In this document: positions 10,227-29,800 of the stretch, one piece after another
Numbering within the stretch: position 1 is the stretch's first letter
Layout of the letters: each line of letters starts with the position of its first letter
Source: an uncultured Clostridia bacterium
Lineage (GTDB): Bacteria; Bacillota; Clostridia; Oscillospirales; Acutalibacteraceae
Reading direction: 5' to 3'
Assembly (NCBI GenBank): GCA_947168785.1
Contig: CAMVNL010000001.1
Location: 1-29,800, forward strand
DNA: 29,800 nucleotides
Notes under the pieces: generated by a model
What the model saw: only the letters and a program-made list of their open reading frames with translations
Told to the model about the DNA's origin: nothing
Database searches by the model: none
Position numbers and translations under genes: made by a program

Positions 10227-12146
10227 ATGAAAAAAAAGATTTATTTCACACAGGTAGGATTCGACTTTGGCGGTTCCGTGTATCTGCCCTATGCGGCGGG
10301 TACGATGATTTCCTATGCCTTGGCGCAGGAGGATCTTGCGGCGGAATACGAATTTCCGACGATTGTTTTTCGTCGGGAGAAGATCGCGGCGGTGATGGAT
10401 AAAATTGAAAACCCGTATATCGCGGCTTTTTCGTGCAGCGTATGGAATATGGAATTCAACAAAACCATTGCGGCGCGGATCAAGGAACAATACCCAGATT
10501 GCTTAGTGGTTTTTGGCGGTCATTCGATCCGTGAAGACTCCCCAAAGCTGCTGGAGGAAGAGCCGTATGTCGATATCCTGATGTACGGGGAAGGAGAGCA
10601 GACGTTTGTCAATCTGCTGCGTGCCCTGCCCACCGGCGACCTGAGCGGCGTTCCCAATATTGCTTTCCGGCAGGGGGGAACGATCCATCTGACGGAACGG
10701 GCGTATTATTATGATCTTGCGAAGTATCCCTCCCCCTATTGCAGCGGCGTTCTTGACGCAATTGTCGACGCGGAGCCGGAGACGGATTTCCTTGCCGTTC
10801 TGGAAACGACCCGGGGCTGCCCCTATTCCTGCGCCTACTGCGACTGGTGCGCGGGGCACAAAATGCGGTTCTTCCCCATGGAAAAAGTGTTGGATGAGAT
10901 CCGTTGGCTGGCGGAGCACCGGGTGGAATATATCTTCTGCGGCGACTCCAACTTCGGTATGTTCGACCGGGACGTGGAGATCGCCAAAGCGCTGGTGGAA
11001 ACCAAACGGCAATACGGTTATCCCAAGGTTTTCCGCCCCTGTTATGAAAAAAACAGCGCGGACCGGGTGTTTGAAATCTGCCGGATCCTCAACTCCGAGG
11101 GGATGGACAAGGGCGCGACCATGGCCTATCAGACGCTCTCCCCGGAGGCGCTGAAAAATATCGGCAGAAAGAATCTGACGCTGGAGCACTTTTCCGATCT
11201 GGTCCGCCGCTACAATGAGGCGGGCATCCCCTGTTACTCTGAACTGATTCTCGGTCTGCCGGGGGAGACGAAGGAGAGCTTCTGCCGGGGTATCTGCCGT
11301 TTGTTGGAGAGCGGCCAGCACAACTCCCTGAGCGTTTACCACTGCGAGATGCTGCCAAACTCCGACATGTCGGATCCGGACTTTGTGCAAAAACACGGCA
11401 TTGAAGTAATCAAAGTACCGTTTAATCATATTCACAGCGCGATCAATCAGAGTGAAGAGATACAGGAATATTCCTACCTCGTCCGGGCAACCAACACCAT
11501 GAACCGGGACGACTGGGTGGGCGCCAATCTGTTCTCCGTCTGTATTCAGTGTTTCCACAGCCTCGGGCTGCTGCGGTGCTTTTCCATGTATCTGACGGCG
11601 GAGGGAATCGTCAGCTATTACGATTTCTTCCGGGACCTGCTGGAATATATTATGGTTTCGGACGGAAAAATCGGCTCTCTCTGGCGTTCCTTCCGAACAA
11701 AATATGAGAACTCTTTGACCGGCGACTGGAATTATCACCGTGACATTTTCGGGAACGTAACGTGGTTCTTTGAAGAGGGCGCCTTCTTGGAGTGTGTCTG
11801 TGATTTTGACGGTTTCTTTGCAGAGCTTGTTCCGTTTTTGCGCCGGTTTCCCATCAAACAGGATCTGTACGAAGAACTGGAGAGGTATCAGCGTACAATC
11901 GTGCGAAAGCCTCACGACAAAGAAACAACCTCGCAGTTTCGTTATGATTTTTATTCCTATTTTGAGAGGATTACCGACGGAGAAAGCGCGCTGCTGGAGC
12001 GGAAAGACATTGTGGTGACGGTCTGTCCGAATAAGGAATATGACGACGTTGCCGAATATGCCCGGGAAACGGTTTGGTATGGCCGACGTAAAGGCGCAAC
12101 TGTTTACCGGGGAAAGGAATTGTCGGTGCAGGGTTCTGATCTGTAG
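10227..12146 (+). CDS. Cobalamin (B12)-binding domain radical SAM protein, 'CDW' paralog family (639 aa)
   Basis: N-terminal B12-binding Rossmann features (YLPYAAG, FSCSVWN, VFGGH, GEGE), radical SAM motif TRGCPYSCAYCDWC, ELILGLPGET, and C-terminal YARETVWYGRR. Confidence 0.9.
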   Translation: MKKKIYFTQVGFDFGGSVYLPYAAGTMISYALAQEDLAAEYEFPTIVFRREKIAAVMDKIENPYIAAFSCSVWNMEFNKTIAARIKEQYPDCLVVFGGHSIREDSPKLLEEEPYVDILMYGEGEQTFVNLLRALPTGDLSGVPNIAFRQGGTIHLTERAYYYDLAKYPSPYCSGVLDAIVDAEPETDFLAVLETTRGCPYSCAYCDWCAGHKMRFFPMEKVLDEIRWLAEHRVEYIFCGDSNFGMFDRDVEIAKALVETKRQYGYPKVFRPCYEKNSADRVFEICRILNSEGMDKGATMAYQTLSPEALKNIGRKNLTLEHFSDLVRRYNEAGIPCYSELILGLPGETKESFCRGICRLLESGQHNSLSVYHCEMLPNSDMSDPDFVQKHGIEVIKVPFNHIHSAINQSEEIQEYSYLVRATNTMNRDDWVGANLFSVCIQCFHSLGLLRCFSMYLTAEGIVSYYDFFRDLLEYIMVSDGKIGSLWRSFRTKYENSLTGDWNYHRDIFGNVTWFFEEGAFLECVCDFDGFFAELVPFLRRFPIKQDLYEELERYQRTIVRKPHDKETTSQFRYDFYSYFERITDGESALLERKDIVVTVCPNKEYDDVAEYARETVWYGRRKGATVYRGKELSVQGSDL

Positions 12147-12229
12147 TATGAACAATGGCATGAGGAAAGCTCTTGTCAGGTTTTCTGTTCATGACAATTC
12201 CTGAAAAGAAAAAAGGAAAGGACATCGTT

Positions 12230-13330
12230 ATGGAACCGATCCCCATGTATGATTTTCCAAGAGAATACGCGATCAACCGGGAGAGTTATCTCGCCCTGTT
12301 CGATACCGTCTGCCGGACGGGACAGTTCTCCGACGGGCAGTTTTCCCATGCGTTTGAGCGGGATTTCGCGGCCTATACGGGCGCGCCCTTCGCCGCCTCC
12401 GTCAGCAACGGGACCGGCGCGCTGGTGCTGTCCCTCCGCGCCCTCGGGATCGGCCCCGGGGATGAGGTGATCGTCCCCTCCGCGACTTTTACAGCCACCC
12501 CCGGCGCGGTGCTGATGTGCGGCGCGAAGCCGGTGTTTGCGGATATCGAGCCGGACACCTGGCAGATCTCCGTGGCCGACGCGGAGAAACGGATCAACAA
12601 GAAAACGAAGGCCGTGATCGGCGTGCACCTCTACGGCGGCATGTTCGACGTGGAGGCGATGCGGCGCCTTTGCGACGCGTACGGCCTCCCCTTTATCGAG
12701 GATACCGCCCAGGCGGTCGGGTCGGAATGGAAGGGGCGGAAGGCCGGTACCTTCGGCAAAACCGGCTGTTTCAGCTTTTATCCCACCAAAAACCTGGGCG
12801 CCTTCGGCGAGGCGGGCTGTGTCGTCAGCGGGGATGAATCGCTGATTGCCCGGATCAACGCCCTGAAAGCGCATGACAGCCGCGACGGCTCGTTCCGTGA
12901 GCTGGGCTATAATATGCGCATGGACGGGCTGCAGGGCGCGGTGCTTTCTTTTAAATTGAAACAGCTTGACGCCTTCACGGAACGGAAAAACGCCATCGCA
13001 TCACTTTACCGGGAGAGTGTGAAGGAATCCGGGCGGCTGGTCTGTCAGTATGCGCCGCCCCACGTCAGGCATTCCTATCACCTGTTCGTGCTGAAAACGG
13101 ACGACCGGGAACGGTTTATCGCCGCTATGACGGAAAAGGGGATCGGGACCGGCGTACAGTACCGGACGCCCTGCCACCGGCAGAAGGTGTTTACGGACGC
13201 CGTGGGCGAAACGTCGCTGCCCGTGACGGAGGAACTGATGGCAAAATGCGTCTCCGTGCCCACGTATCCGTATCTCACGGATGAGGAGATCGCTTACGTC
13301 GCCGAACAGTTGAAACGGTACGCCCGGTGA
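12230..13330 (+). CDS. DegT/DnrJ/EryC1/StrS-family PLP-dependent sugar aminotransferase
   Basis: SNGTGAL, VHLYG, EDTAQAVG, SFYPTKNLGAFGEAG (PLP lysine), GYNMRMD. Start placed at ATG 12230 behind RBS AAGGAAAGGA rather than 12173. Confidence 0.93.
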   Translation: MEPIPMYDFPREYAINRESYLALFDTVCRTGQFSDGQFSHAFERDFAAYTGAPFAASVSNGTGALVLSLRALGIGPGDEVIVPSATFTATPGAVLMCGAKPVFADIEPDTWQISVADAEKRINKKTKAVIGVHLYGGMFDVEAMRRLCDAYGLPFIEDTAQAVGSEWKGRKAGTFGKTGCFSFYPTKNLGAFGEAGCVVSGDESLIARINALKAHDSRDGSFRELGYNMRMDGLQGAVLSFKLKQLDAFTERKNAIASLYRESVKESGRLVCQYAPPHVRHSYHLFVLKTDDRERFIAAMTEKGIGTGVQYRTPCHRQKVFTDAVGETSLPVTEELMAKCVSVPTYPYLTDEEIAYVAEQLKRYAR

Positions 13331-13417: not shown

Positions 13418-14980
13418 ATGAAAAAAAACAATTCTCATTCGCAAAGAAAACTGCGCATGCTGGCGGTCAGGAATCTCCTGATCGTGTTTGTTTCTCTGTG
13501 CGCTTTGATGGGCGTTGCGGAATTGGTACTGAATCTGCAGCTTCTTTCCGCGGGAGATGCGGATAACGAAAACGCGGTGCTGATGAGCTATGAAAAAACG
13601 CCGGTGCCCGCCCTGCTGACCACGGAGGAAAACTACGTTTACGCGAAACAGTTTTTCAGCAATCCGGACGATTATGACAGATTTGTGGAGGAAGAAGCCC
13701 CTTCCGCATTGCGCTATCCTTATATTGATAATCTGAAAACCACCGCGGACTATGACGACGATACGATCGATATCCTGGTCCTCGGCGATTCTTTTACCTG
13801 GGGCGAGGCTTCTCTCAACCGCAACGAGCTGTTCTGGCGACAGCTGGAGCGGATGCTGCGCGCGCAGGGATATAACGTGCGGGTCTCTGCGGTCGCGGCG
13901 GAGGGCGCCACCGGCTATGAAGAACTCCATTGGCTGGTGGACGGTGCGGCGGAGGATTTCTCCGCCGACCTGGTGATCTTCGGCTATGTGTTCAACGACG
14001 CCATGCGACCAGGCAACGGCTTCGGCGCGATGCCGCAGCGGCTGGTGATCCCGTCTCTTACCTGGCTGGAAAAGACGCTGCCGCGGTTCGCCCAGAAGGT
14101 TTACGCCTATGTGGACGCCAAAACGCTTTATACCAAAAAATACGGCGACCGTTATAAGGATTCCTATATTTCCGTGCTGGACGACGATCTGACGCCCTAT
14201 TATCGGGAGCATTTTGTGGAGCCGCTGGCGGCGTATTCAAAAGAACGTGATCTGCCCGCTGTGGTGGTGACGCTGCCCAACGAAACCAACAGCCTGCTGC
14301 TGGAAGAGCTTTATCGTCCGCTGGAGGATATTTTCGAAGGTACGGGCATTGGATATTACAACAGCTGCGAAGCGTTCAAAAAACAATACGGATCCAATCA
14401 GCACAAAAAAAATATTACGGTGAACGCCATGAACGTCCATCCCGGCAGCGCCGCGCACCGGTTCTACGCGGAATATATCTGCGACTTTTTGCTGCGGGAT
14501 TACGCGGACGTTCTTGGGCAGCCGAGCGGAACCGATCTCAACAGCCGGATCGTTTCCGTCAACGACCGTATGCCGGGGGATATTGATCTGCGGACCGTTT
14601 CCGAAAGTGAAACCGGATCCGTCTGTACGTTCGTTTACCCCGACGTTGCCGTCCCGCGTTATATGTATGAAGTTGAGATTGCGCCCTATTGCCTGCGCAA
14701 TCCGATCAAAGAGGGCTATATCAAGCTTTCGTTTGAAAATCCCGTCAATCTGTCCGAGGTTCGCATTGAAGGCGAAGCCGGACAGCAGGTCAGCCTGTGG
14801 TATACGACGGTGAATGAAAAGCTTGGTTATGACGACAATACCGTAACGCCGTGGGAGGCGACGCCGGAGGCTCCCTTCGTCTGGCGGTCGGAAAAAGAGG
14901 AACAGGTCACCTCGCTGTGTATCCATGCGGAGCGGCCCGGATTGCTGACGGTCACCGTTACGGGAAAGGTGGAGGCTTGA
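13418..14980 (+). CDS. Membrane-anchored SGNH/GDSL-family protein (hydrolase or acyltransferase)
   Basis: N-terminal TM helix; blocks LGDSFTWG (Ser), IFGYVFNDA, and NVHP (His); extra C-terminal beta-rich domain; directly upstream of the carbamoyltransferase. Confidence 0.8.
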   Translation: MKKNNSHSQRKLRMLAVRNLLIVFVSLCALMGVAELVLNLQLLSAGDADNENAVLMSYEKTPVPALLTTEENYVYAKQFFSNPDDYDRFVEEEAPSALRYPYIDNLKTTADYDDDTIDILVLGDSFTWGEASLNRNELFWRQLERMLRAQGYNVRVSAVAAEGATGYEELHWLVDGAAEDFSADLVIFGYVFNDAMRPGNGFGAMPQRLVIPSLTWLEKTLPRFAQKVYAYVDAKTLYTKKYGDRYKDSYISVLDDDLTPYYREHFVEPLAAYSKERDLPAVVVTLPNETNSLLLEELYRPLEDIFEGTGIGYYNSCEAFKKQYGSNQHKKNITVNAMNVHPGSAAHRFYAEYICDFLLRDYADVLGQPSGTDLNSRIVSVNDRMPGDIDLRTVSESETGSVCTFVYPDVAVPRYMYEVEIAPYCLRNPIKEGYIKLSFENPVNLSEVRIEGEAGQQVSLWYTTVNEKLGYDDNTVTPWEATPEAPFVWRSEKEEQVTSLCIHAERPGLLTVTVTGKVEA

Positions 14981-14983: not shown

Positions 14984-16780
14984 ATGGAACAGTATATTCT
15001 CGGTATTTCCGCCCTTTACCATAACGCCGCCGCCGCGCTGACCTGCGACGGGGAGATTGTTGCTGCCGCAGAGGAGGAGCGGTTTACCCGCAAAAAGGGC
15101 GACGCCTCTTTCCCCATCAACGCGATCAAATTTTGTCTGGACTCCGCCGGCCTGATGCCGGAGGAGCTTTCCGCGGTGGCGTTCTATGAAAACGTCACCA
15201 CCAAATTCGAGCGGATCCAGACCGGTATTTTCCTCAACGTTCCAAAGAGCCTGCCGCAGTTCCTCACCGCCATGCCGGATTGGGTAACCAATAAACTGTG
15301 GATCGAAAACAAAATCCGGAAAGAGCTGGGCTGGCACGGGCCGTTTTATTACGTGCCGCATCACCTGGCGCACGCGGCATCCGCCTATTATCCCTCTCCC
15401 TTTGACGACGCCGCCATCCTCACGGTGGATGGGGTCGGGGAGTGGTCTTCCCTTACATGGGGAACCGGCGAGAGCGGCAATATCGCCATCAGGGAGTCAC
15501 TGGATTATCCGAACTCCCTCGGGCTGCTGTATTCCGCTTTTACGCTGTATACCGGGTTCAAAATCAACAACGGCGAGTATAAGATGATGGGGCTGGCCCC
15601 TTACGGCGAGCCCGTCTATGCAGATCTGATCAAAAAAGAGCTGGTCCGGATCGCGCCGGACGGCAGCTTTCTGTTGAATCAGAACTATTTTTCCTATACC
15701 TACGGATTGAAGACCTTCCGCCCGGAATTTGAAGCGCTGTTCTGCAGAAAGATGCGCGCCAAAACGGAACCCATCGAGTCTTTCCATGCGGACGTGTCCG
15801 CCAGCATCCAGCAGGTGACGAACGAGATCCTGCTGTTGACGGCGCGGCACGTGCGGGAAAAAACCGGCAAACGGCGTCTTGTGATGGCGGGTGGCGTGGC
15901 GCTGAACGTTACCGCCAACGGGTTGTTGCGTCAAAGCCGGATCTTTGACGATATCTGGATCCAGCCGGCCGCCGGAGACGCGGGCGGCGCGGTTGGCGCG
16001 GCGCTTTCCACGTATTATTCCACTGCCAAGGCGGAAAAACAGGCGTCCGCAAAAGACGGGATGAAGGGCTCTCTGCTGGGTTACCGGATCCCGGATACGA
16101 GCAAGGCGGACGACGAAGCGCTCCGGGCGCTTGGTGCCAAATGGACGACCATGTCCCGCAAAGCTTTGCAGGAAAAGGCGGCAAAGCTGCTGGCGGAAGG
16201 AAAGATCGTCGGCGTGGCCTGCGGCAGCGCGGAATTCGGCCCCCGGGCGCTGGGGAACCGCTCCATTCTGGCGGACGCCAGAGACCCCGCCATGCTGCAG
16301 CGGCTGAACAAAAAAATCAAATTCCGCGAGGGCTTCCGGCCGTTCGCCCCCATCGTCCTTGAAGAGGACGCAAAGGATTACTTTGAGATAGAGGGCACAT
16401 CGCCCTATATGCTTTTCACCTTCCCTGTCCGGCCGTCACGCAGGCTGCCCGTGGAGCGGGCGGAGCGGGTGGAGGATACCGCATCGCTGGCCCGTTCGGA
16501 TATCCCGTCGGTGACCCACGTCGATTATTCCGCCCGGATCCAGACGGTGAACGGGGAGGATGATCGTTTTGTGTACGGTGTTTTGCAGGCATTCAAACGG
16601 CTGACCGGTTACGGGATCCTGATCAACACCTCCTTCAATACGAACAACGAGCCCATCGTCAATACGGCTGTGGATGCGTATCGCTGTTTTATGCGCTCGC
16701 AGATCGATTACCTGATTGTTGGCGGCAGATTTTTTGAAAAATCGGCCCAAACGGCCGAGGCGCCGAAGGGAGGCTGGTGA
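14984..16780 (+). CDS. O-carbamoyltransferase, CmcH/NodU/TobZ family
   Basis: ILGISALYH, EEERFTRKK, HHLAHAASA, TVDGVGE, GEYKMMGLAPYG, GGVALN, QPAAGDAG, GPRALGNRS, KFREGFRPFAP, HVDYSARIQTV, NTSFN. Confidence 0.95.
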   Translation: MEQYILGISALYHNAAAALTCDGEIVAAAEEERFTRKKGDASFPINAIKFCLDSAGLMPEELSAVAFYENVTTKFERIQTGIFLNVPKSLPQFLTAMPDWVTNKLWIENKIRKELGWHGPFYYVPHHLAHAASAYYPSPFDDAAILTVDGVGEWSSLTWGTGESGNIAIRESLDYPNSLGLLYSAFTLYTGFKINNGEYKMMGLAPYGEPVYADLIKKELVRIAPDGSFLLNQNYFSYTYGLKTFRPEFEALFCRKMRAKTEPIESFHADVSASIQQVTNEILLLTARHVREKTGKRRLVMAGGVALNVTANGLLRQSRIFDDIWIQPAAGDAGGAVGAALSTYYSTAKAEKQASAKDGMKGSLLGYRIPDTSKADDEALRALGAKWTTMSRKALQEKAAKLLAEGKIVGVACGSAEFGPRALGNRSILADARDPAMLQRLNKKIKFREGFRPFAPIVLEEDAKDYFEIEGTSPYMLFTFPVRPSRRLPVERAERVEDTASLARSDIPSVTHVDYSARIQTVNGEDDRFVYGVLQAFKRLTGYGILINTSFNTNNEPIVNTAVDAYRCFMRSQIDYLIVGGRFFEKSAQTAEAPKGGW

Positions 16781-16784: not shown

Positions 16785-17405
16785 ATGAAAAAGCAAAAAC
16801 AAAGCTCCTCCGGATTCGCTTCTTTTTCTGAATACTATGACGAGCGGAAGCTGCGAAAGGAGGTCGGAACGACGGGATTGTTCCTGTGCCTGTTCTGTGT
16901 GGTGCTGGCCGCCGTCTTTTTTGTACGGGGATTGGCTGCCGTTGGGGTGCAGGAGGTGTTGTCCTACGCGGCAACTGGCTTCTTTTTGCTGATTCTTGTG
17001 ATCTATCTGCTGTTTCCCGCGTCGTTGTTCCGTTTTTTTTGGAAGCTGCGTCCCGTGACGGATTGCATCGGGAAGTACCTGCTCCGCCTGATTCTTCTTC
17101 CCGTTTATCTGGTATTGTGTCTGTTCAGCCTGCCGTTCGTGGGCCGGCAACGGAAAAAATATCAGTTCGCCTCCTGGAAGGAGCCGGCTGCTTCTGCGGA
17201 CACCTATTATTCCGCAGATACACAGAACGTTTTCCGGAACAGTTCCTCCGGACGGTTCCGGTTCCTGACCTCTCTGCTGGGCGTCATGGCGGAAAAACGG
17301 CAGTTTTTCCTTTTCCCGGTTTTTCTTGTGCTGCTGCTGTTGGGCCTCTTCTTCTATTTTATCTCCTCCAGCAGTATTCTCGGTTTTGTTTATACGCTTT
17401 TCTGA
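16785..17405 (+). CDS. SxtJ-family membrane protein fused to a C-terminal SxtK/DUF5989-like peptide
   Basis: ATG 16785 just after the carbamoyltransferase stop. SxtJ-like 'LRK..G' start and hydrophobic segments. C-terminal ~45 aa (LLGVMAEKRQFFLFPVFLVLLLLG...ILGFVYTLF) matches the recalled DUF5989 pattern ending FIYTLF. Typical carbamoyltransferase-SxtJ-SxtK-SGNH neighbourhood. Confidence 0.72.
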   Translation: MKKQKQSSSGFASFSEYYDERKLRKEVGTTGLFLCLFCVVLAAVFFVRGLAAVGVQEVLSYAATGFFLLILVIYLLFPASLFRFFWKLRPVTDCIGKYLLRLILLPVYLVLCLFSLPFVGRQRKKYQFASWKEPAASADTYYSADTQNVFRNSSSGRFRFLTSLLGVMAEKRQFFLFPVFLVLLLLGLFFYFISSSSILGFVYTLF

Positions 17406-18773: not shown

Positions 18774-18787
18774 GAAAGGGAAAAAAG

Positions 18788-19546
18788 ATGGAAAAACAGG
18801 TTTACAGCAAAAAGACTGTCACGCTCTGCGGCGTCTGCCTTTTTATCATTGCGTCTGCTGCATTTTTTTCCATGAGCGCGTTTACAAGGCCGGTATTTGG
18901 AAATAACTGGCAATGGCAGCTTTCCTTTGCCGTGCTGGCGGTGTGTCTGATTCTATCCGCAGCTGTTAAGCGTTCGTTGATTTCGCTGTGTCTTGCCGCA
19001 GTGGTCACGGCGGCAATGTGGGCCGTTACGCCGTTTTACGGTGGGCTGTTTCTGCCTGTTTCTCTGCAGGCGGTTCTGTGGGAAGCGGCAAGGGAAGAAA
19101 GAAAAGAAAGCGGCCCGGTTTTTGTTGTCGCTTTGTTGGCGGTTTCGTTTACGGTGCCTTTGCATCTTCGGTTGTGGAAATTTTTGACGTTTAACGCACC
19201 GAGCAGCAGCGACCCTGTCGGTGAAGCCTACGCGTGTTTTGTCGGGCTGATTCTTCTGCTGGCGATTTGGACCGTGCTGCTTATCAGGGCGCTTCGCCGT
19301 GCAAAAAGCGAAAAAAAAGCGCCAGCGAAAAAACGCGGACGCCATTCCAAACCATCGACCGGAGAAAAGCTTTTTCCGGTAGTATATGCCGTTTGTGTAT
19401 TCAACACGGCGTTTTCCGTGGCGCACTGTTTTCAGTTTTTTTCCGGTGAATACGTGAAAACAATGCTTTTTGCCAACTGGTTGTTTTTCTTCTACCTGTT
19501 GTATCGGTGCGAGTTGTTTCCCTGTGTATGGCAGCAAAACGCATAA
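18788..19546 (+). CDS. Hypothetical polytopic membrane protein with Lys-rich loop (distant paralog of 19557-20354)
   Basis: ATG 18788 after a purine-rich RBS (alternative GTG 18770 overlaps the upstream stop). Multiple hydrophobic helices; loop KSEKKAPAKKRGRHSK. Confidence 0.7.
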   Translation: MEKQVYSKKTVTLCGVCLFIIASAAFFSMSAFTRPVFGNNWQWQLSFAVLAVCLILSAAVKRSLISLCLAAVVTAAMWAVTPFYGGLFLPVSLQAVLWEAAREERKESGPVFVVALLAVSFTVPLHLRLWKFLTFNAPSSSDPVGEAYACFVGLILLLAIWTVLLIRALRRAKSEKKAPAKKRGRHSKPSTGEKLFPVVYAVCVFNTAFSVAHCFQFFSGEYVKTMLFANWLFFFYLLYRCELFPCVWQQNA

Positions 19547-21673: not shown

Positions 21674-23557
21674 TTATAAAAACCATCGTGTTACATGGAG
21701 GATGTATCCTGCTTCTCCCTGCGTCATCTCATACTCACAGATTTGCTTATAAAAGGTGAGTTTCTCTTTTGCCCATGCTGTTTTCACAGGGTCGTCCAAA
21801 TAGTTCTCGAATGTGTAATTATCGTACAGTGGGATGTAAATGTACTCAGGGCGCCTTTCCGGGAGAAGCTCCCAGTAACGAACCGCACGGGTTTCACTAT
21901 CCATCTCCACATACCAGGTGTCATAACAGCCGAAGGGAAGATCTGCGTATAGGTAACAGAAAGCAAATAGTTCTGAAACATAAAACGGGCCGGTGCAATC
22001 TGCCTTGATTTCATCGATGTCTTTCAAAATGAAGTTATAGATCTCCTTGATGTGCGCGGTGGTATGGATGCCTTTGAAGGGGCCGTGATCAACAACGGCG
22101 GAGAGAGATTCCTTTTTTGTTGGGTTGGCGTAATGCTCAACAATCTGATAAAAACCTAATGCATAGACTCCGTAGCTTTCCCATGCAAAAAAGCAAATCA
22201 GGCAAACGGCCGCAATGGCAGAGCTGAGTTTTTTTCTGTGATATTTCTGATGTTCTTCTGTGTTTTTTTCAGAACAACGCTGTTCCGCGCGGATTTCTTT
22301 TAACACAGTGAAAAACATCGGTATCAGCTCGAAACAGGCAATGACACCGCAAAAACCGATTACGTGTTCAGACACGGTATCTATCAGCACGCTTGAAACA
22401 GCGCTTACCAACCAGACGCAAAACAGGCGTGGTTTTTTTTGTTCGCAAAGCAAATAACAGTTCAGTCCGAGAAAAAAAACAGGCGCGGAATGGTAATTAT
22501 AGTAATAAAGGTATGTGGGTGTATATGATTTTGACAACATCGGTATGCGGAGAATGATGAAGGCAGCGCAGAGATAGGCAGCGGCAAAGCAAACGCATGC
22601 CGCAGTAAACAGTTGCGCTTTCCGGTTTTTGTCTTTTCTCAATTTCTTTCTGTAAACAAGCGACAGGATTAAAACCGTAATGCCGAGAACGGGCGGCACA
22701 ACGCCATAGAATCGGAATGCTTGCCAAAGCTTAAAAAAGCTAAAAAAACTTCTTCCGCTTCCGCTGAAAAAGGAATATTCTGAGTCCGAAAACAATTCAG
22801 GGAAGATACGAAAGATTTCCGACGGTGCACTGCGACTTAACAGAAAAGCAAAAAACGCTGCGGCGGTAAGAAAGATGCCGACCGTAACCCAAAACCAGAC
22901 CTTGGGAAGCAGAATAAAGGAAAAATCATTAAAAAAGGGCTTTCCCTTTTTTCGGAAAAATGAGCCGCAAAAAAAGAGAATGCTCCACACAAAATACAAT
23001 ATTGCCAAAACCGGTTCTGCGAGTACCGTGCAGGCCAATACAACACCCGACAGAAGAAGAACCGGAACGGAGTATTGTTTATCTTTGAAAAACAACAGCG
23101 CACATAGTACTGCAAGCCCATGCAGAGACATGGAGTAATAGTTCAAAGTAATAATCGCCATAGGCATATTGGCGACAAACAGCACAACGGGGATCAGTCC
23201 CCCGATGCCGTATGGACGCATCTTTGCATATAGGAACCAATAAAGAATCAGATTAACTGCCAAACAAAAGAACCGGAGAGATATAATAATCCCCTCGGAG
23301 GAACCTGTTACCGTTGTGATCAGCCAATAGGGAAAGATCAGCAACACGGAGGAGAGCTGTTCAACGTGCCATTCGTCAATCAGCAAACGATCCCCCTTCA
23401 GTAATCTCTGGGGAATCGTATAATAAACGCATTCATCTTCTGAATCAATGCCCTGTGTCGCGGCATATATCAAATAGGTAAACAACGCAATACAAATCAC
23501 GAGTGCAACCAAGTCTGTACTGCGAAAGCCTTTCTTTTCGGTAAGCTTGTTTCTCAT
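21674..23557 (-). CDS. Polytopic membrane protein, putative GT-C (ArnT/GT39-like) glycosyltransferase with C-terminal soluble domain
   Basis: Acidic first external loop after TM1 (IDSEDECVYY...DEW), many TM helices, and a ~130-aa hydrophilic C-terminal domain. Confidence 0.6.
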   Translation of the reverse strand: MRNKLTEKKGFRSTDLVALVICIALFTYLIYAATQGIDSEDECVYYTIPQRLLKGDRLLIDEWHVEQLSSVLLIFPYWLITTVTGSSEGIIISLRFFCLAVNLILYWFLYAKMRPYGIGGLIPVVLFVANMPMAIITLNYYSMSLHGLAVLCALLFFKDKQYSVPVLLLSGVVLACTVLAEPVLAILYFVWSILFFCGSFFRKKGKPFFNDFSFILLPKVWFWVTVGIFLTAAAFFAFLLSRSAPSEIFRIFPELFSDSEYSFFSGSGRSFFSFFKLWQAFRFYGVVPPVLGITVLILSLVYRKKLRKDKNRKAQLFTAACVCFAAAYLCAAFIILRIPMLSKSYTPTYLYYYNYHSAPVFFLGLNCYLLCEQKKPRLFCVWLVSAVSSVLIDTVSEHVIGFCGVIACFELIPMFFTVLKEIRAEQRCSEKNTEEHQKYHRKKLSSAIAAVCLICFFAWESYGVYALGFYQIVEHYANPTKKESLSAVVDHGPFKGIHTTAHIKEIYNFILKDIDEIKADCTGPFYVSELFAFCYLYADLPFGCYDTWYVEMDSETRAVRYWELLPERRPEYIYIPLYDNYTFENYLDDPVKTAWAKEKLTFYKQICEYEMTQGEAGYILHVTRWFL

Positions 23558-23591: not shown

Positions 23592-25094
23592 CTATTTCCT
23601 GAATTGAAAATGAAAACCGTATTTTTTGCGGATCCGTGGGAAAAACAAGGCGTTGGAAACGGTGATAACGGTGAATTTAGCGGAATAAAATACCCCACGC
23701 AGCCATTGGTTGAACTGCATGGTGCGGATATTCATCAGAATCGTCTTTAATGATTCAAGCGCAAAACTGGAACTTTTTTCTTTTTTCGTGCCCGGATTGC
23801 GGGAAAACAGATCCTGGAACAAAAAACAGGAACGGATTACGCGGTAATCCCGGTCCGGCACCTCGCTGAAGGAAGAGTAGATTTTTTCGATCAGCGCGCC
23901 ATCGCGCAGCGCTTCCAGCGTCTTCGGCGGATCGTAAAGTCCCTCGCGTACCACCTGATCGTACAGCACGCTTTTTTCAAACGGAGCAAAATAATGAATG
24001 CTCAAAAGGTTGGTCGGGAGCGACTGGATATACTGCACGGTATCTCTCAGATCCTGCTCTGTCTCATGCGGAAAGTTGAAAATGAAGGAGATATTGTAAA
24101 TCATGCCGACGTCGCGGCAATTCTGAAGCGTCGGCGCGACCAGATCATAGGGCAAATGCTTGTTCGCGATTTTCGCGAGATGCCCGGGCGGCGCCTCAAT
24201 GCCGAAGAAGACCCAGCGGCAGCCGTTATCGTACATCTCTTGGATGTCCTCTTTTTTCAGCACGCCGATGCGCGTCTGGCAGCCCCAGATGAAGGAGAGA
24301 TTCCGTTCCCTCATCTGCCTGTAAAAATCCTCTCGTTCGGATTTTGTTACGCCCCAAAGCTCATCCGCGAAATAGACCGTTTCCAGCCCGTGGTTTTTGA
24401 CCAGGTATTCCACCTCGTCCAAAAAGTCGGCTACTGGCCGTACGCGCCGTTTGCATTTGTGAAAATAGGGGTTGAAGCAGAAAGCGCAGTTGCCCGTACA
24501 CCCTTTGGACAGATACAGATACGCCATGTTCTCATAGCAGTAACAGGGCTGAAAATACGCTTTTATATCGGGCAGCAACGTAAAATCCGTCGGGCCCAAC
24601 AGCGAAAGATCCATAAAAGGCTCTTCCGGCGTCAGAACGATGTCTCCGTTTTCCGCGCGGTAAGCGATACCGTTGACCTGACGCGGGTCTTCGCCGTTTT
24701 CCATCGCGTTCATCAGATTCAGCCAGACCTGCTCCCCCTCGCCGATGGTGATGTAGTCTGCTTTCCCTTCTCCTAATATGATTTCCGGAACGGTAGAGGC
24801 GTACGTGCCTCCCACGATAACGGGGATGTTCTTTGTCCGGAAATAATCGCCGATAACGATCATGTCGGGGATCGTCATGTTGGAGATCAGTGAAATTCCT
24901 ATCACGTCCGGATGGTAGCGTTCATATACGGAATCCAGCGGTTCAGAATAAAGAATGCGGTCAACGATTGACACCTGATGTCCGTGCCGGTTCAGATAGG
25001 TCGCAATGGAGAGCTGCCCCAGAGGAAATCCGCTCATCCTTTGATAGGACAGGGATTTCGGATCGTAATTCGGATGAAACAATAAGGCTCTCAT
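23592..25094 (-). CDS. Cobalamin-dependent radical SAM protein (class B methyltransferase-like, distinct from the CDW paralogs)
   Basis: PLGQLSIATYL, VGGTYAS, GEGE, SKGCTGNCAFCFNP, YFADELW, VFFGIEA; 500 aa. Confidence 0.9.
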   Translation of the reverse strand: MRALLFHPNYDPKSLSYQRMSGFPLGQLSIATYLNRHGHQVSIVDRILYSEPLDSVYERYHPDVIGISLISNMTIPDMIVIGDYFRTKNIPVIVGGTYASTVPEIILGEGKADYITIGEGEQVWLNLMNAMENGEDPRQVNGIAYRAENGDIVLTPEEPFMDLSLLGPTDFTLLPDIKAYFQPCYCYENMAYLYLSKGCTGNCAFCFNPYFHKCKRRVRPVADFLDEVEYLVKNHGLETVYFADELWGVTKSEREDFYRQMRERNLSFIWGCQTRIGVLKKEDIQEMYDNGCRWVFFGIEAPPGHLAKIANKHLPYDLVAPTLQNCRDVGMIYNISFIFNFPHETEQDLRDTVQYIQSLPTNLLSIHYFAPFEKSVLYDQVVREGLYDPPKTLEALRDGALIEKIYSSFSEVPDRDYRVIRSCFLFQDLFSRNPGTKKEKSSSFALESLKTILMNIRTMQFNQWLRGVFYSAKFTVITVSNALFFPRIRKKYGFHFQFRK

Positions 25095-25139: not shown

Positions 25140-28100
25140 TTATGAGCAGAATCGAAATTCAGATACAGGGGCGTAATGGTTGCTGGAGTAATCGGTTTCT
25201 CTCCGGTTTCGACCATACCACACGGTTTCACGCGCAAGCTGCGCGAACGAGGATACAGGTGCGGGATCCGTTACGGTAAGATTTATCCGCCTGTTTACAA
25301 GAGATGCAGGCTCATTTTTATAGATTTGGTTGAAATATGTGTAGAAATCATAATCGGAAACGATGGTAATTTGTTTCTGATTGATTTTTTTGATAATATC
25401 ATGCTGGTAATCGAATAGCGCAGTCAACACGGGAGATGGGCCGACACGGGCTTCAAGCCAACTCCGTATTTCCCGATAAAAACCGGGGAGATGTTGATAG
25501 GCTTCTAAAAATAGAATCTCGTCGAAGCCCCACAGCAGCCCATCGGTATTTGGCAGCGGCGCCACAAAGGAGTTTGTTTGTTGCAATACGCCGCAGCATA
25601 AGCCATATATCGTATCGTGCAACTGTCCTAACAAGCTATCGGGCGATTGCCTGGCGTAATCGATCAAGTCCCGGTAAAACGATACATAGGGATATCCGAG
25701 CTCATAACGGCAATAGATGGCAATTGCCCGTAAAAGGCCCAGGTTGTGCAATCCCTGTACATAGTTGGAGAACACGTTGGCGCGAACCCAGTCCGTTTCG
25801 TCCATGGAATAGGTGGCGACGATATAATCGCCGTATTCCGTAATTTCGCTTTCTTGATTCTGGGCGGAGGAGTGTATGACGTGAAACGGGATGCGGATGC
25901 TTTTGATTTGGTATTTATTGATATACCACGGCTGCCCCATTTCCGAATTCGGCAACAACTCACATGGATAAGCGTTTACCGCGAAATGCTGACCGTTTTC
26001 CAGCATAGCGCACAGACCGTCGCAGAAGCTGTCGTAGGTTTCGCCGGGCAGGCCGATGATCAGCTCGGAATAGGTGGAGATCCGGTTTTCGTTGTATCGG
26101 AGCATCAACCGGCGGAAATCCTCTGTGGAGATGTTCTTCCTGCCGACGTTGGCCAACACCTCAGGATTCATGCTCTGGAAGGAAACTGTCATCGCCTTGT
26201 CAAGACCGTTTTCCACCAGTTTCTTGCCGATGTCGAATACGAAATCGAATTTGTTTTTGGTAAAGAAGACCCGGAAGACCTTGGGGTATCCGTATCGCTT
26301 TTTGCTTTCGGCCACGTAATCCATGATCTCGGCGTCGCGGCTGAAGAGGCAGAAGTTGGCGTCCGCGCAGTAGACGAACTCGATTTTATGCCGGACGAAC
26401 CAGTCGATCTCCGCCTTGACCCGCTCCATCGGGAAGAGGCGCACCTTCGATTTCAGGGAGCTCCAGTCGCAGAAGGAGCAGGAGTTGGGGCAGCCCCGGT
26501 TGCTTTCCAGCAGCGCGGAAAAGGCAACGTCGTCCTGTAGCAGGTCGTCAAATACGCCGGTCAGGTAGGGGGAGGGATAATCCGTGCCCGTCTGGGGCGC
26601 GTAGGAGGTGGTTTGTACCGTACCGTTTTTGTCGCGGAAGGAGATATTGGGGATCTCCGCCAGCGGGCTGCCACTGTGCAGCGCACGCATCAGGTCTGCG
26701 GTGGGCTCTTCGCCGAAGCGGTGGATCAGGAAGTCGATATAGGGATAGCGCGTCAGGAACGCGCCGTCGGCGGAGATGCTGTGCCCGCCGAAGGCGACGT
26801 AGCAGTCCGGGTAGCGCGTCTTGACCGCGGCGGCCGCGGCCTTGTCGTACTCCGCGTTCCACACCGAGCATGAGAACATCACCATGTAAGGATCGACCAA
26901 CTCGTCCACCAGCTCCCGGATGGGTTTGCGGTAGTAGATGATCTTCTGAAACGCGTAGGCGTCCGCGATAGTCTTATCCTGCATACAGTAGGCCTGGATG
27001 CAGCCCACGGCGTAGGGGAAGTAGACGGTTTTTTTGTCGGAACCGTACATGCTGTTAGCTTGTATGAAGTAGACGTTTTTTTTGGCCGGGTACGTCACCG
27101 TTACGTTTTTTTTGTCCAGCAGCCGGATCGGCGCTCCTTTCTTTTTGCCGAAAAGGATGACTCGTTTTCCGTAATCGAACCAGTTGTCAACCGGGTCCGG
27201 GATCGCGACGGTCAGTTCTGTCGTCTTCTTTTCCAACGGCGAGTAACCGGTGGGGTCCGCCGTGGCGAAATAGGTATAAAAATCGTAAGCGAAGCGGGCG
27301 GTTTCCCGTTCCTGCCCCAGAAGGCGGATGGCGAACTTCTGATAGCGGCACAGCTCGTCGAACACCGCCGGGGCCACGTCGTACCCGGCGAGGAACGGAC
27401 GGATCTCCTCCCAGAAACGTTCGTAGTCAGCGGCGATCTCCATAAACAGGCCCTCGTCGAAATACCAGCCCACGTCGCCGAATTTTGCGTTGACGTAGGC
27501 CCACTCGCCCTTGGAAAGGTCGGCGCCCCAGGCCCGGAACCGATGGAGCATCTCGTGCAGGAAGGTCCCGTCGGCTTCCTCCGCAAAGCGGACCAGCGAC
27601 GAATAGAAATCGTAATAGGAGACGTGCAACTCCCGCCGCAGGTACACGGCAAAATACCGCAGCATGCCGATGTGGTGGAAGCACTGGACGAACATGACGA
27701 ACATCAGCGCGTCCAGCATCTCATCGTAGGTCATGGTGTTGGTCTGCACCACCATGTCCACGTATTCAAAAATCTCGTTTTCCACGTTGGGGGAAACGTG
27801 GATGCAGCTGAGCTTCACGTGCTCGGTTTTGATGCCGTGTTTGGCGATATAGGCAGGGTTGCCCATCAGGGCGTTGGGAAACACCTGACAGTCGTAGACC
27901 GTCATGGCGTTGTGCTGACCGGCCTCCACCAGTTGGCAGACGCCCCGGCAGAAGCTCTCCTTCGTCTCGCCGGGCAGGCCGAGAATCAGCTCCGTATAGG
28001 TGGGGATGCCCACGTCGTTGTACCGTTTGATCAGGTCGGAAAAGGCCTCCACCGTAAAGTTCTGGCGGCCGATGTTCTTCAGCGCCTCGTCGCAAAGCGT

Positions 28101-29000
28101 CTGGTAGGCCAGCGTGATGGCCTTGTTGAGGCCGTTTTCCACAAAGAGTTTGGAGATATAAAAGACGTTTTCGTTACTGTTCTTGGCGTAGCAGGCGTTG
28201 AAGATATGCGGGTAGCCGTATTTTTTCTTCAGCCCCACCACAAATTCCGCGATCTCCCTGTCCCGGGGCAGGATGCCGAAATTGCCGTCGGCGCAGTAGA
28301 CGTAGTCGATCTTGTGCTTCGCGCACCACTCGATCTCCGCAAAAACCTTTTCCAGCGGGAAGCAGCGAATCTTGCCGGTGAAGCACCAGTCGCAGTAGGC
28401 GCACTGGTAGGGGCAGCCCCGGTTGGTTTCGATGGTGATGCAGAAATCCACCCCGGGGGAGGCTTCCAGGATCTCGTCAAAATACCCCAGCAGATAGGGG
28501 GAGGGGTAATCCAGCTCCGGGTCGGGCTCTTTATGGGTAAAGCGCAGCGCGCCGTTTTCCCGGTAGGCGATATTGGGCACGCCGGAGAGATCCCCGTCCC
28601 GGTCCAGCGCCAGCAGCAGCTCCTTGAAGGGGCGCTCGCCTTCGCCCAGCATAAAGACGTCCGCGTAGGGGTAGCGCTCCGCCAGCGGCTGCTGCGCGGA
28701 GATGTCGTGGCCGCCGAAAACAATCAGGCAGTCGGGGTATTTTTCCCGCAGGGCGGCGGCCAGCAGGCGGTTGTATTCCGCCGTCCACATATAGCAGGTG
28801 AACGCCACAACGTCGGGATCGACCAGCTTGGCCAGCGCCTCGTCGATGGGGTCGCGTTTCCAGATCATGCCGGCGCAGCGGTAGGAAGACGCGATCCGTT
28901 CGTCCGCCCATGCGTACGCGGCCAGACAGCCGGATGCGTAAGGCAGATATTCTGATTTTCCGACCGATTTGTTCGCCAGAACAAAATACACGTTTTTCAC
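25140..29000 (-). CDS. Tandem fusion of two complete B12-binding/radical SAM 'CDW' modules (639 + 647 aa)
   Basis: Two B12 domains (MKNVYF..YLPYASG; KKNVYF..YFPYAVG), two intact motifs (RGCPYQCAYCDWC; RGCPNSCSFCDWS), two ELI(L/I)GLPGET. Junction at ~27083. GTG start overlaps the GT2 stop (GTGA). Confidence 0.9.
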   Translation of the reverse strand: MKNVYFVLANKSVGKSEYLPYASGCLAAYAWADERIASSYRCAGMIWKRDPIDEALAKLVDPDVVAFTCYMWTAEYNRLLAAALREKYPDCLIVFGGHDISAQQPLAERYPYADVFMLGEGERPFKELLLALDRDGDLSGVPNIAYRENGALRFTHKEPDPELDYPSPYLLGYFDEILEASPGVDFCITIETNRGCPYQCAYCDWCFTGKIRCFPLEKVFAEIEWCAKHKIDYVYCADGNFGILPRDREIAEFVVGLKKKYGYPHIFNACYAKNSNENVFYISKLFVENGLNKAITLAYQTLCDEALKNIGRQNFTVEAFSDLIKRYNDVGIPTYTELILGLPGETKESFCRGVCQLVEAGQHNAMTVYDCQVFPNALMGNPAYIAKHGIKTEHVKLSCIHVSPNVENEIFEYVDMVVQTNTMTYDEMLDALMFVMFVQCFHHIGMLRYFAVYLRRELHVSYYDFYSSLVRFAEEADGTFLHEMLHRFRAWGADLSKGEWAYVNAKFGDVGWYFDEGLFMEIAADYERFWEEIRPFLAGYDVAPAVFDELCRYQKFAIRLLGQERETARFAYDFYTYFATADPTGYSPLEKKTTELTVAIPDPVDNWFDYGKRVILFGKKKGAPIRLLDKKNVTVTYPAKKNVYFIQANSMYGSDKKTVYFPYAVGCIQAYCMQDKTIADAYAFQKIIYYRKPIRELVDELVDPYMVMFSCSVWNAEYDKAAAAAVKTRYPDCYVAFGGHSISADGAFLTRYPYIDFLIHRFGEEPTADLMRALHSGSPLAEIPNISFRDKNGTVQTTSYAPQTGTDYPSPYLTGVFDDLLQDDVAFSALLESNRGCPNSCSFCDWSSLKSKVRLFPMERVKAEIDWFVRHKIEFVYCADANFCLFSRDAEIMDYVAESKKRYGYPKVFRVFFTKNKFDFVFDIGKKLVENGLDKAMTVSFQSMNPEVLANVGRKNISTEDFRRLMLRYNENRISTYSELIIGLPGETYDSFCDGLCAMLENGQHFAVNAYPCELLPNSEMGQPWYINKYQIKSIRIPFHVIHSSAQNQESEITEYGDYIVATYSMDETDWVRANVFSNYVQGLHNLGLLRAIAIYCRYELGYPYVSFYRDLIDYARQSPDSLLGQLHDTIYGLCCGVLQQTNSFVAPLPNTDGLLWGFDEILFLEAYQHLPGFYREIRSWLEARVGPSPVLTALFDYQHDIIKKINQKQITIVSDYDFYTYFNQIYKNEPASLVNRRINLTVTDPAPVSSFAQLARETVWYGRNRRETDYSSNHYAPVSEFRFCS

Positions 29001-29722
29001 TGTGACGACTCCGTTGTGAGCTTTTTTGTATCCGTAAAACGGATTTTCAGGATCATATAATAGTAGAGCAGCGCCGCGCCGAAGGTCCGGTGAGAGCGCC
29101 CTTCTTCTCTTGCGACGTTTTTGGTGGGCACTTCATAGAATGGAACGCCCAGCCGCAGCGGCTTGAACACCATTTCCGTGGTGAACTCAAAACCGCTTCG
29201 CTCCCACCGGATGGAGCGGTAAAGTGCGACCGGCGCGATTTGCGTTGGGTTTGTAAATTCCGTCAGATCGGAACGGTACAACAATCCAAAGCAACGCTGG
29301 GATATCTTGTTGAGCAGCTTCTTCAGCTGACCGTAGTCGTCAAAGCCCTCCGGGTGCAAAAAACGGCTGATCTTCACAATTGCCTCCGGATGTACCTGCG
29401 ATAAACGCAGCATCTCCGGGAAGGAGGCGACGTCGGTTGCCTCGTCCGCGCTCCAGACCACCATGTGGGTGCCCTTGACCTCCCGGATCGCCGCCTGTAT
29501 CGCGTCACCGAAACCTTTGCCGGGCTGATACAGCCAGCGGTAGCCGGGGCGGGCGCAGAGCGTATCCACGGTTTTCAGGCAGGCGTCGGTACAATTCCGG
29601 GCCAGAACGAACAGGTATTCGCAGGCGGCGGAGTAAGCGTCGAGCTTATGAAAGGTCCTCTCCAGCGAGAAGGTCTCGTCGACGGCGCAGATGACGATGG
29701 AAAGGCGGTAGGTGTCAGGCAT
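28997..29722 (-). CDS. Glycosyltransferase family 2, DPM1/ArnC-like (putative polyprenol-phosphate sugar transferase)
   Basis: LSIVICAVDE, GKGFGDAI, VVWSADEATD (DxD-like), ISRF, GFEFTTEM, EVP...REEGRS; 241 aa with no TM. Confidence 0.85.
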   Translation of the reverse strand: MPDTYRLSIVICAVDETFSLERTFHKLDAYSAACEYLFVLARNCTDACLKTVDTLCARPGYRWLYQPGKGFGDAIQAAIREVKGTHMVVWSADEATDVASFPEMLRLSQVHPEAIVKISRFLHPEGFDDYGQLKKLLNKISQRCFGLLYRSDLTEFTNPTQIAPVALYRSIRWERSGFEFTTEMVFKPLRLGVPFYEVPTKNVAREEGRSHRTFGAALLYYYMILKIRFTDTKKLTTESSQ

Positions 29723-29800
29723 GGGCGTCCGCCTCCCGGATCTCGGAGGTATACAGGTATTTCCCGCCCCGCCGGCCGTACCAGACCAGTTCGCGGGCGT
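29715..29800 (-). CDS. C-terminal 27 aa of a further CDW-family B12 radical SAM gene (5'-truncated by window edge; missed by the ORF track)
   Basis: Minus frame 29798-29715 reads ARELVWYGRRGGKYLYTSEIREADAHA*, matching ARETVWYGRR(K/N) at the ends of the other paralogs. Stop overlaps the GT2 start by 8 nt. Confidence 0.8.
   Translation of the reverse strand, partial: ARELVWYGRRGGKYLYTSEIREADAHA

Follow-up and report, generated by a model that had tools for sequence, protein, structure and literature searches.

Radical C-methylation that depends on B12 has been described for antibiotics, cofactors, hopanoids and a few proteins. In gentamicin biosynthesis GenK and GenD1 are B12-dependent radical S-adenosylmethionine (SAM) sugar C-methyltransferases, and TobZ is the carbamoyltransferase of tobramycin. 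TokK and ThnK, the sequential methylases of carbapenem C6, and CysS from the cystobactamid pathway (PDB 7kdx, 9n1b) combine a Rossmann B12 domain, a radical SAM core and a TokK-type C-terminal domain. The Arn (ArnB, ArnC, ArnT) and Gtr/CsbB-YfhO systems hold a DegT aminotransferase, a lipid-carrier family 2 glycosyltransferase (GT2) and an outward-facing GT-C glycosyltransferase in one locus. Here we describe a locus that resembles all of these, at positions 10227-29800 of contig CAMVNL010000001.1 from an uncultured member of the Acutalibacteraceae (assembly GCA_947168785.1). The window, that is the whole stretch of 29,800 nucleotides that was analysed, is the entire contig C1 of a metagenome-assembled genome (MAG) that is 58% complete, consists of 435 contigs and has a GC content of 58%. 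On balance we favour the reading that the locus tailors a cell-surface glycoconjugate, in which a sugar would be aminated, C-methylated and carbamoylated, placed on polyprenyl phosphate and then, outside the membrane, transferred to an acceptor.

The window modules of the TokK type have the three domains of TokK, ThnK and CysS and are ~33% identical or less to Streptomyces homologues. Unlike those enzymes, the genes of the window family are located in sugar-nucleotide/GT2/GT-C loci of gut Clostridia and not in beta-lactam or peptide antibiotic clusters, and they form arrays of 3-10 paralogues, some of them fused. The likeness to the Arn system includes ArnT as the best structural match of MP627, a membrane protein of the locus, and the likeness to CsbB-YfhO includes a YfhO gene in a sister locus of the same MAG. 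The window has no ArnA-, ArnD- or ArnE/F-like gene and its DegT protein scores far below the ArnB cut-off, so that it follows the same logic without being a member. The GtrA flippase of the Gtr systems is also absent from the window, and neither the Arn nor the Gtr/CsbB-YfhO systems have anything equivalent to the five radical SAM modules and the carbamoyltransferase of the window. GenK, GenD1 and TobZ provide a precedent for aminosugar C-methylation and O-carbamoylation; they tailor free pseudo-oligosaccharide antibiotics, whereas the context here is lipid-carrier glycosylation.

Full-text literature searches found no paper that places B12 radical SAM enzymes in a locus for lipid-carrier glycosylation or in the assembly of cell-envelope glycans, and a 2026 review of B12 radical SAM enzymes mentions neither glycans, polysaccharides nor cell walls. 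The locus would be of a known type, three-component lipid-carrier glycosylation, with a tailoring chemistry that would be new for glycans.

Organization of the locus

The genes at 10227-29800 form two convergent operons with intergenic gaps of -4 to 87 nt. The plus-strand operon contains, in order, genes for a TokK-like enzyme, a DegT aminotransferase, an SGNH-like protein, an O-carbamoyltransferase, a fused SxtJ/SxtK-like protein, the membrane protein MP449 and a membrane protein of ~255 residues. The minus-strand operon contains the cut end of a TokK-like gene followed by genes for a 241-residue GT2, a 1286-residue TokK-like fusion, a 500-residue B12 radical SAM enzyme, MP627, a second membrane protein of the MP449 type (MP420) and a 265-residue membrane protein. 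A preliminary description of this DNA had proposed a lipid-carrier pathway for a carbamoylated aminosugar, encoded in two tightly coupled operons. The gaps bear out the coupling, and the open reading frame (ORF) lists place every component that it named at its position, including at least five B12 radical SAM modules (one free TokK-like module, two fused modules, one truncated at the contig end and the 500-residue enzyme), the DegT aminotransferase, the TobZ/NodU-type carbamoyltransferase and a soluble DPM1/ArnC-like GT2. It had seen no polyketide synthase (PKS), nonribosomal peptide synthetase (NRPS), precursor peptide or exporter, and none is found among the Pfam and NCBIfam matches of the window proteins. 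An Rfam scan of the window gave no family matches, and therefore no cobalamin riboswitch.

B12-dependent radical SAM enzymes

Four of the five modules are assigned by their sequences to the TokK class. The first gene of the plus-strand operon (10227..12146, + strand) encodes a TokK-like enzyme of 639 residues. The 1286-residue protein (25140..29000, - strand) is a head-to-tail fusion of two complete modules, each with a B12-binding and a Radical_SAM stretch. The fourth is represented by the final 27 codons of a gene that is cut by the contig end (29716..29800, - strand); they translate as ARELVWYGRRGGKYLYTSEIREADAHA (starting ARELVWYGR) followed by the stop codon, which overlaps the GT2 start. 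The peptide ARELVWYGRRGGKYLYTSEIREADAHA is identical to the C-terminus of a full-length TokK-like gene product in L039, a contig from a different rumen MAG, where the gene lies upstream of the GT2. Pfam domains PF02310 (B12-binding) and PF04055 (Radical_SAM) are above cut-off in every complete module, and the CxxxCxxC motif is intact at residue 198 of the 639-residue enzyme (CPYSCAYC) and at residues 196 and 837 of the fusion.

The 639-residue enzyme matches TokK (PDB 7kdx) with a phmmer E-value of 2e-94 over residues 4-579, which covers all three domains; the alignment reaches TokK residue 608 and includes the TokK-type C-terminal domain. The match to CysS has an E-value of 3e-57. Residues W73 and W207 align with Trp76 and Trp215 of TokK and are both invariant in 15 aligned family members; in an 18-member alignment W207 is invariant and W73 is at least 90% conserved. 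Trp76, located below the corrin, and the active-site residue Trp215 form a pair that was reported to be common only to TokK, ThnK and CysS (bioRxiv 10.1101/2021.07.10.451909). Arg280 of TokK, which binds the carbapenam carboxylate, has no conserved equivalent across the family, and the substrate therefore differs from that of TokK. The TokK-like proteins are kin of the KedN5 subfamily and lie outside it, as a single module scores 270 bits and the fused pair 474 bits against a cut-off of 700 bits (NCBIfam NF033712). Weak NCBIfam matches of the radical SAM proteins include the HpnP, HpnR and ladderane-type families. The TokK-like modules are putative sequential methylases of unactivated carbon.

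A FastTree phylogeny of 155 modules assigns each of the three complete TokK-like modules of the window to a clade of its own, in which other MAGs have orthologues. The paralogues are thus ancient and differentiated and are no recent copies. The double-module fusion is kept in two other genomes, with 92% identity in L039 and 58% in L020. Among 400 other genomes, sampled evenly across the phylum, none gave a TokK-like match at E<=1e-60, so the battery in this locus is no chance occurrence; in a species-level genome collection, TokK-like relatives are encoded in 568 stretches, mostly of Acutalibacteraceae. A complex prediction for the GT2 with the adjacent TokK-like module gave a score of 0.00, which counts neither for nor against binding.

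The remaining enzyme (500 residues; 23592..25094, - strand) is a class B (B12-binding) radical SAM enzyme of another kind, with Pfam matches above cut-off to B12-binding (6e-13) and Radical_SAM (8e-17) and an intact CxxxCxxC motif. Its best PDB matches are 9ccb (2e-15) and AprD4 (2e-10), it reaches none of the NCBIfam cut-offs, and it is best classed as a generic class B member. The preliminary description had grouped the modules as a single "640-aa CDW" type, which is correct for the four TokK-like modules and not for this enzyme.

Putative lipid-carrier glycosyltransferases and an aminotransferase

The 241-residue GT2 (28997..29722, - strand) has start and stop codons that overlap TokK-like genes on both sides. 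A profile built from 20 family members matches the Pyrococcus furiosus Dol-P-Man synthase (5mlz) with an E-value of 5e-20 over the full catalytic length (residues 5-232 against 23-246), ArnC with 1.6e-9 and GtrB with 8e-5. The protein is thus a relative of the polyprenyl-phosphate glycosyltransferases, and it resembles the anchor-less DPM1-type enzymes in having no predicted transmembrane segments. The DegT/DnrJ/EryC1-type sugar aminotransferase, a pyridoxal phosphate (PLP) enzyme (12173..13330, + strand; true start probably near 12230), matches Pfam PF01041 with an E-value of 5e-112 and has the PLP lysine in a YPTK motif. Its best NCBIfam matches are PseC and ArnB, both far under the cut-off (216 against 631 bits for ArnB).

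MP627 (21674..23557, - strand) is a protein of 627 residues with ~11 transmembrane helices and a C-terminal outer domain. Its AlphaFold2 model has a pTM of 0.81. The top 29 Foldseek matches of the model are all GT-C proteins with E-values down to 1.5e-4, and 15 of them are at E<1e-3 (STT3, DPY19, AglB, PglB, ArnT, AftA). Structural alignment with VIA-align gave Z scores of 12.6 for ArnT (419 residues, including the outer C-terminal domain), 12.3 for AglB and 12.2 for both AftA and Pmt4. Additionally, hhalign comparison with 16 aligned PMT_2 proteins of other Clostridia gave a probability of 95.9% (E=6.5e-9) and set D41-E42 of loop 1 against the DE motif of the PMT proteins; among 44 family members the conservation of these residues is at least 90%. 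MP627 is a GT-C enzyme of the ArnT/PMT-like kind. The Pfam PMT_2 model (PF13231) gives no hmmscan match for MP627, for any of the 44 family members or, even at E<=10, for the whole MAG; the kinship with PMT_2 is visible only by profile-profile comparison and fold. A Pfam scan of the 44 relatives found only single stray matches (GtrII, DUF2142). The family has no name and is large, as it comprises 2809 representative clusters at E<=1e-3. In contig C28 of the genome G010 (L017 630-15631), eight tandem MP627 paralogues, 27-32% identical to MP627, are followed by a B12 radical SAM gene.

MP449 (17424..18773, + strand), a polytopic protein of 449 residues, has a predicted GT-C fold (AlphaFold2 pLDDT 83, pTM 0.83). 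The top 30 matches of its model in VIA-align are all GT-C proteins, with Z scores of 12.9 for STT3, 12.7 for ALG12 and 11.4 for PglB over residues 15-446. Among the named fold families of the ESM Atlas the closest to it is Rv1490 (PF27463), which is uncharacterised, and the invariant D64 is located in the first outer loop. No relation between MP449 and MP627 was detectable with hhalign. MP420 (20374..21636, - strand; 420 residues) is a paralogue of MP449, with 28% identity over the full length (BLASTP E=6e-44) and orthologues of 75-79% identity in L039 and in L001, the closest relative of the locus. Pfam, NCBIfam and profile searches against PDB sequences were all empty as sequence-only routes to the membrane-protein families, and word-indexed homologue searches returned unnamed proteins only. 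The preliminary description had counted three GT-C-like membrane proteins; this is firm for MP627, by Foldseek, VIA-align and the PMT_2 comparison, and probable for MP449 and MP420, by the fold of the model.

The carbamoylation module

The O-carbamoyltransferase (598 residues; 14984..16780, + strand) is a soluble member of the NodU/CmcH/TobZ family. Its Kae1-like N-terminal and YrdC-like C-terminal domains are both far above cut-off (Carbam_trans_N 3e-78, Carbam_trans_C 4e-66), its translation contains an HHLAH sequence corresponding to the HxxxH metal motif, and it has no transmembrane helices. It matches GdmN (2e-91), NovN (3e-89) and TobZ (5e-68) from end to end. NovN carbamoylates the sugar noviose.

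The upstream gene (13418..14980, + strand) encodes a membrane-anchored SGNH/GDSL-like protein of 520 residues. It has a GDS motif at residues 123-125 and a block-V His at residue 341, and the usual Asp three residues ahead of this His is absent. Its two Pfam GDSL scores are under the gathering thresholds (23.3 against 32.9 bits and 20.5 against 23.6 bits) and its PDB match to SGNH esterases is weak (1e-3). Of the families named in the preliminary description this is the weakest call: the motifs and the N-terminal helix are in its favour and both Pfam scores are against it. The single transmembrane helix (residues 20-38) is preceded by basic residues, and the catalytic domain should therefore face outward, outside the membrane.

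Downstream of the carbamoyltransferase is a gene for a small membrane protein (206 residues, 4-5 transmembrane helices; 16785..17405, + strand) that fuses an SxtJ-like part with an SxtK-like DUF5989 unit at the C-terminus (33 bits against a cut-off of 27). DUF5989 is above cut-off in 2 of 401 Bacillota genomes, and the only other strong match is in contig C73 of G231 (L107). The saxitoxin cluster holds the same quartet as sxtI-J-K-L, in which SxtL is a GDSL lipase (PMC2679770, PMC2885083). As in that cluster, a carbamoyltransferase, an SxtJ-like membrane protein, a DUF5989/SxtK unit and a GDSL-type protein are adjacent in the window. Unlike the saxitoxin cluster, the window has no other sxt genes and SxtJ and SxtK are in one ORF; unlike SxtL, the SGNH protein of the window has an N-terminal membrane anchor and a C-terminal extension of 150 residues. 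The SxtJ/SxtK fusion is also found in the relatives L001 and L004. In the two nearest relatives the SGNH, carbamoyltransferase, SxtJ/K and MP449 genes and the partner of MP449 stay together despite a shuffled gene order.

Related loci in other genomes

The locus was compared with 60 related loci; the counts are lower bounds, as the ORF caller was crude and many contigs were short. The number of radical SAM genes per locus has a median of 3 and a maximum of 10. A small DPMS-like GT2 lies within the TokK-like array in ~30 of the 60 loci, MP449-family genes are present in 21, and 23 have genes for nucleoside diphosphate (NDP)-sugars within 10 kb. These include short-chain dehydrogenase/reductase (SDR) epimerases, dehydratases and reductases, a sugar-1-phosphate nucleotidyltransferase, an Fkp-like fucokinase/pyrophosphorylase, an HddA-like GHMP kinase, a cupin and DegT. 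The association extends beyond the Clostridia, where the sugar-gene neighbours of TokK-like homologues are found in L081 (7694-11992), L086 (9995-14092) and L064 (6979-12915). In a Magasanikiibacteriota (Patescibacteria) MAG, a TokK-like gene is located between two GT2 genes, with a 4,6-dehydratase/epimerase-type SDR two genes upstream. In two Planctomycetota MAGs, the TokK-like gene adjoins either a GMD-like dehydratase and a GDP-L-fucose-synthase-like gene or a LegB-like dehydratase and a GT2; L086 has an ABC exporter upstream as well. The sugar-gene company in Patescibacteria and Planctomycetota indicates that the tie between these radical SAM enzymes and nucleotide sugars is older than the Clostridial radiation. 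That the radical SAM homologues would keep company with sugar and glycosyltransferase genes elsewhere, as the preliminary description implied, is thus supported. The largest arrays, with 10 and 9 B12 radical SAM genes within 22 kb, were observed in L071 (a 186-kb contig from an uncultured Eubacteriales MAG) and L042, respectively.

The same MAG has a second locus of this type on contig C2 (L114 7856-20000; L115). It encodes a 518-residue distant relative of MP449, a 232-residue GT2 and a paralogue (62% identity) of the giant surface protein that precedes the window locus. The C2 locus further holds two TokK-like genes and genes for a 290-residue radical SAM protein, a 344-residue GT2 and a 913-residue YfhO GT-C protein (Pfam 9e-136).

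The continuation past the right edge of the window can be read from L039, which is syntenic, with identities of 92% for the fused enzyme and 85% for the GT2. Upstream of the GT2 it has the complete TokK-like gene and, divergent from it, a second DegT, a 321-residue GT2 and another MP627-type GT-C gene. No PKS, NRPS, RiPP (a peptide made by the ribosome and modified after translation), exporter or resistance genes were found in this continuation; nothing in it resembles the small-molecule or RiPP cluster for which the flank was checked. A contig from sheep-gut DNA likewise continues beyond 29789 with matching sequence.

Proposed pathway and points against it

The pathway would follow the three-component logic of lipid-carrier glycosylation, with a cytoplasmic GT2, flipping and an outward-facing GT-C, to which a battery of B12-dependent radical SAM enzymes is added. 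An NDP-sugar, supplied from elsewhere in the genome or from genes beyond the contig end, would be transaminated by the DegT enzyme; the neighbouring genes of the relatives point to sugars of the GDP-6-deoxyhexose or heptose type. The four diverged TokK-like methylases would C-methylate the sugar at unactivated carbons, possibly repeatedly, and the 500-residue radical SAM enzyme would modify it further. The NodU/TobZ-type enzyme would O-carbamoylate the sugar, and the SxtJ/K-like protein may hold this enzyme at the membrane. The tailoring may take place on either the nucleotide sugar or the lipid-linked sugar. The DPMS/ArnC-like GT2 would load the sugar onto polyprenyl phosphate and, after flipping, the three GT-C-fold proteins (one ArnT/PMT-like and two Rv1490-like) would transfer it to envelope acceptors, where the extracytoplasmic SGNH protein may edit or complete an ester or carbamate decoration. 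Every chemical step is inferred, as are the nature of the sugar, the sites of methylation, the action of the radical SAM enzymes on the sugar, the order of events and the acceptor. The lipid-carrier reading of the preliminary description is supported by these results, and the checks of fold, co-occurrence and flanking sequence each failed to refute it.

Several observations weigh against this pathway. The product, the substrate and the acceptor are all predictions from genes. The window has no nucleotidyltransferase, no dehydratase and no recognisable flippase, and GtrA-like genes are found on other contigs of the MAG. A hydropathy scan found no transmembrane helix in the GT2, which is thus without the C-terminal helices of ArnC, GtrB and the archaeal DPMS. 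The assignment of MP449 and MP420 as GT-C enzymes depends on a predicted model: the top Foldseek matches of MP449 are all GT-C proteins, but with E-values of only 0.05-0.9, its Z scores are in a range that unrelated helical bundles can reach, and its family matches the PMT_2 profile at a non-significant 31% in hhalign. Finally, the carbamoyltransferase/SGNH/SxtJK module is present only in the nearest relatives and absent from the wider family. It is therefore accessory and outside the conserved core, and we read it as an accessory decoration system.

Neighbouring genes and source genome

The left part of the contig contains aromatic amino-acid genes followed by a gene for a giant secreted surface protein with Ser/Thr- and Cys-repeats (2314 residues; 3100..10044, + strand), which borders the cluster. 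Its Ser+Thr content is 20-33% across the first 1100 residues. Homologues with 57-62% identity flank the TokK/GT2 locus of contig C2 and the G010 locus, and giant proteins next to TokK-like/GT2 loci are found in the window, in contig C2, in G010 and in three further loci; the sites recorded besides the window include L018 10481-16735, L045, L075 and L084. This repeated adjacency makes the giant Ser/Thr-rich proteins candidate acceptors of glycosylation. The family is numerous in the MAG (at least 12 contigs) and L001 has no such gene at this site, which counts against an acceptor role.

The gene after MP449 (18770..19546, + strand) encodes a small membrane protein of ~252-258 residues with 5 transmembrane helices and no family match in Pfam or NCBIfam. 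A small membrane protein of 230-280 residues directly follows an MP449-type gene in L001, L004, L019, L020 and L023 as well. The last gene of the minus-strand operon (19557..20354, - strand) encodes a membrane protein of 265 residues with ~7 transmembrane helices and no significant family match. These two had been described as a mirror-image pair of paralogues, which their sequences do not support, since they have no detectable similarity (BLASTP E=0.8); the pair of MP449 and MP420 is real.

No other contig of the MAG shares the right end of the window, and the rest of the fifth TokK-like gene is unassembled. The right end of the window and that of L001 (a 35.5-kb contig) both break within a TokK-like array. 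Paralogue repeats probably fragment short-read assemblies, and loci with such arrays are probably under-represented in MAGs as a result. The MAG encodes CobS. Its nearest public relatives are Acutalibacteraceae/Oscillospiraceae MAGs from the guts of goat, sheep, buffalo, cattle and termite, and at least 19 sequencing runs on sheep and cattle guts, contributed by at least 9 studies, contain the stretch itself. In a sheep-gut metatranscriptome, eleven contigs of 151-191 nt with 99-100% identity and low depth are scattered over 10227-25984 and cover both operons, which hints at expression of both operons in vivo, with DNA carry-over as a possible source. One contig from a run of sheep-gut DNA lacks the 180 nt at 10044-10225 that separate the giant gene from the first radical SAM gene, a case of strain variation in the promoter region.

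Alternative readings

A bolder version of the proposed pathway, which we consider unlikely, assigns more specific roles to the same genes. The TokK-like battery would extend a lipid-linked amino or deoxy sugar with alkyl branches of several carbons (ethyl, isopropyl or larger), and the PMT/ArnT-like and Rv1490-like GT-C proteins would O-link this greasy carbamoylated sugar to the giant Ser/Thr-rich proteins. The SxtI/J/K/L-like module would then act as an all-purpose device for carbamoylation coupled to the membrane, and its SGNH domain would work outside the cell.

The TokK-like enzymes might instead act on another membrane-handled substrate, such as the polyprenyl carrier, a membrane lipid or the giant surface protein before its export, with the sugar genes as an independent neighbouring module. 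B12 radical SAM enzymes do methylate lipids, as in the HpnP, HpnR and ladderane-type families that are among the weak NCBIfam matches, and also proteins, as in the MCR methylases and 9ccb, the best PDB match of the 500-residue enzyme; moreover, giant-protein homologues are located beside TokK-like loci at least five times. This substrate seems rather improbable when the gene order is considered, as the GT2 start and stop overlap TokK-like genes on both sides and a GT2 is inside the arrays of ~30 loci. The distant homologues in other phyla keep NDP-sugar dehydratase/epimerase neighbours without giant proteins, and the closest relative, L001, has the locus without the giant gene.

We give little credence to the production of a secreted or membrane-bound small molecule, either aminoglycoside-like or a moenomycin-like glycolipid, for which the polytopic proteins would serve export, immunity or lipid attachment. 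It is true that all characterised relatives of the soluble tailoring enzymes belong to antibiotic pathways (TokK/ThnK, CysS, KedN5, GdmN, NovN, TobZ and, distantly for the 500-residue enzyme, AprD4), that one Planctomycetales TokK-like homologue adjoins an ABC exporter and that DegT enzymes are frequent in aminoglycoside clusters. However, neither the window nor its extension in L039 contains a scaffold-forming enzyme, a GT-B glycosyltransferase, a regulator, a resistance gene or an exporter. The GT2 is of the lipid-carrier type, a YfhO gene is present in the sister locus, the membrane proteins adopt the GT-C fold and form tandem arrays with as many as 8 paralogues, and the locus varies among species in the manner of surface-glycan loci.

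Within the favoured glycoconjugate pathway, the radical SAM enzymes could perform non-methylating sugar chemistry, such as epimerisation, dehydration, ring contraction or C-C rearrangement. The class B enzyme OxsB and relatives such as AprD4 catalyse non-methylating radical reactions, AprD4 matches the 500-residue enzyme, and that enzyme is below every NCBIfam family cut-off. For the locus as a whole this chemistry is very doubtful, because the four modules of 640 residues align with TokK across three domains and keep the Trp pair of the TokK/ThnK/CysS methylase node. A RiPP reading was rejected, as no precursor or leader-type gene is present, the RiPP-type radical SAM families score far below TokK and KedN5, and the neighbours are sugar genes.

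Significance

The TokK-like family has radiated into arrays of 3-10 genes across a family of ruminant and termite gut Clostridia and is tied to sugar genes across phyla. The occurrence of the stretch in sheep and cattle gut runs means that material for testing exists. If the glycoconjugate pathway is true, these bacteria would carry sugars on their surface built on carbon skeletons for which no known glycosidase or lectin has been selected, and the locus type would be a source of new sugar-acting C-alkylating enzymes. If, additionally, the alkyl branches and the giant protein acceptors are true, gut anaerobes would possess a new class of glycan chemistry on proteins or polymers, one that depends on vitamin B12. 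The proposed pathway would also link the cobalamin supply of the gut to cell-surface structure and to recognition by phages and the immune system.

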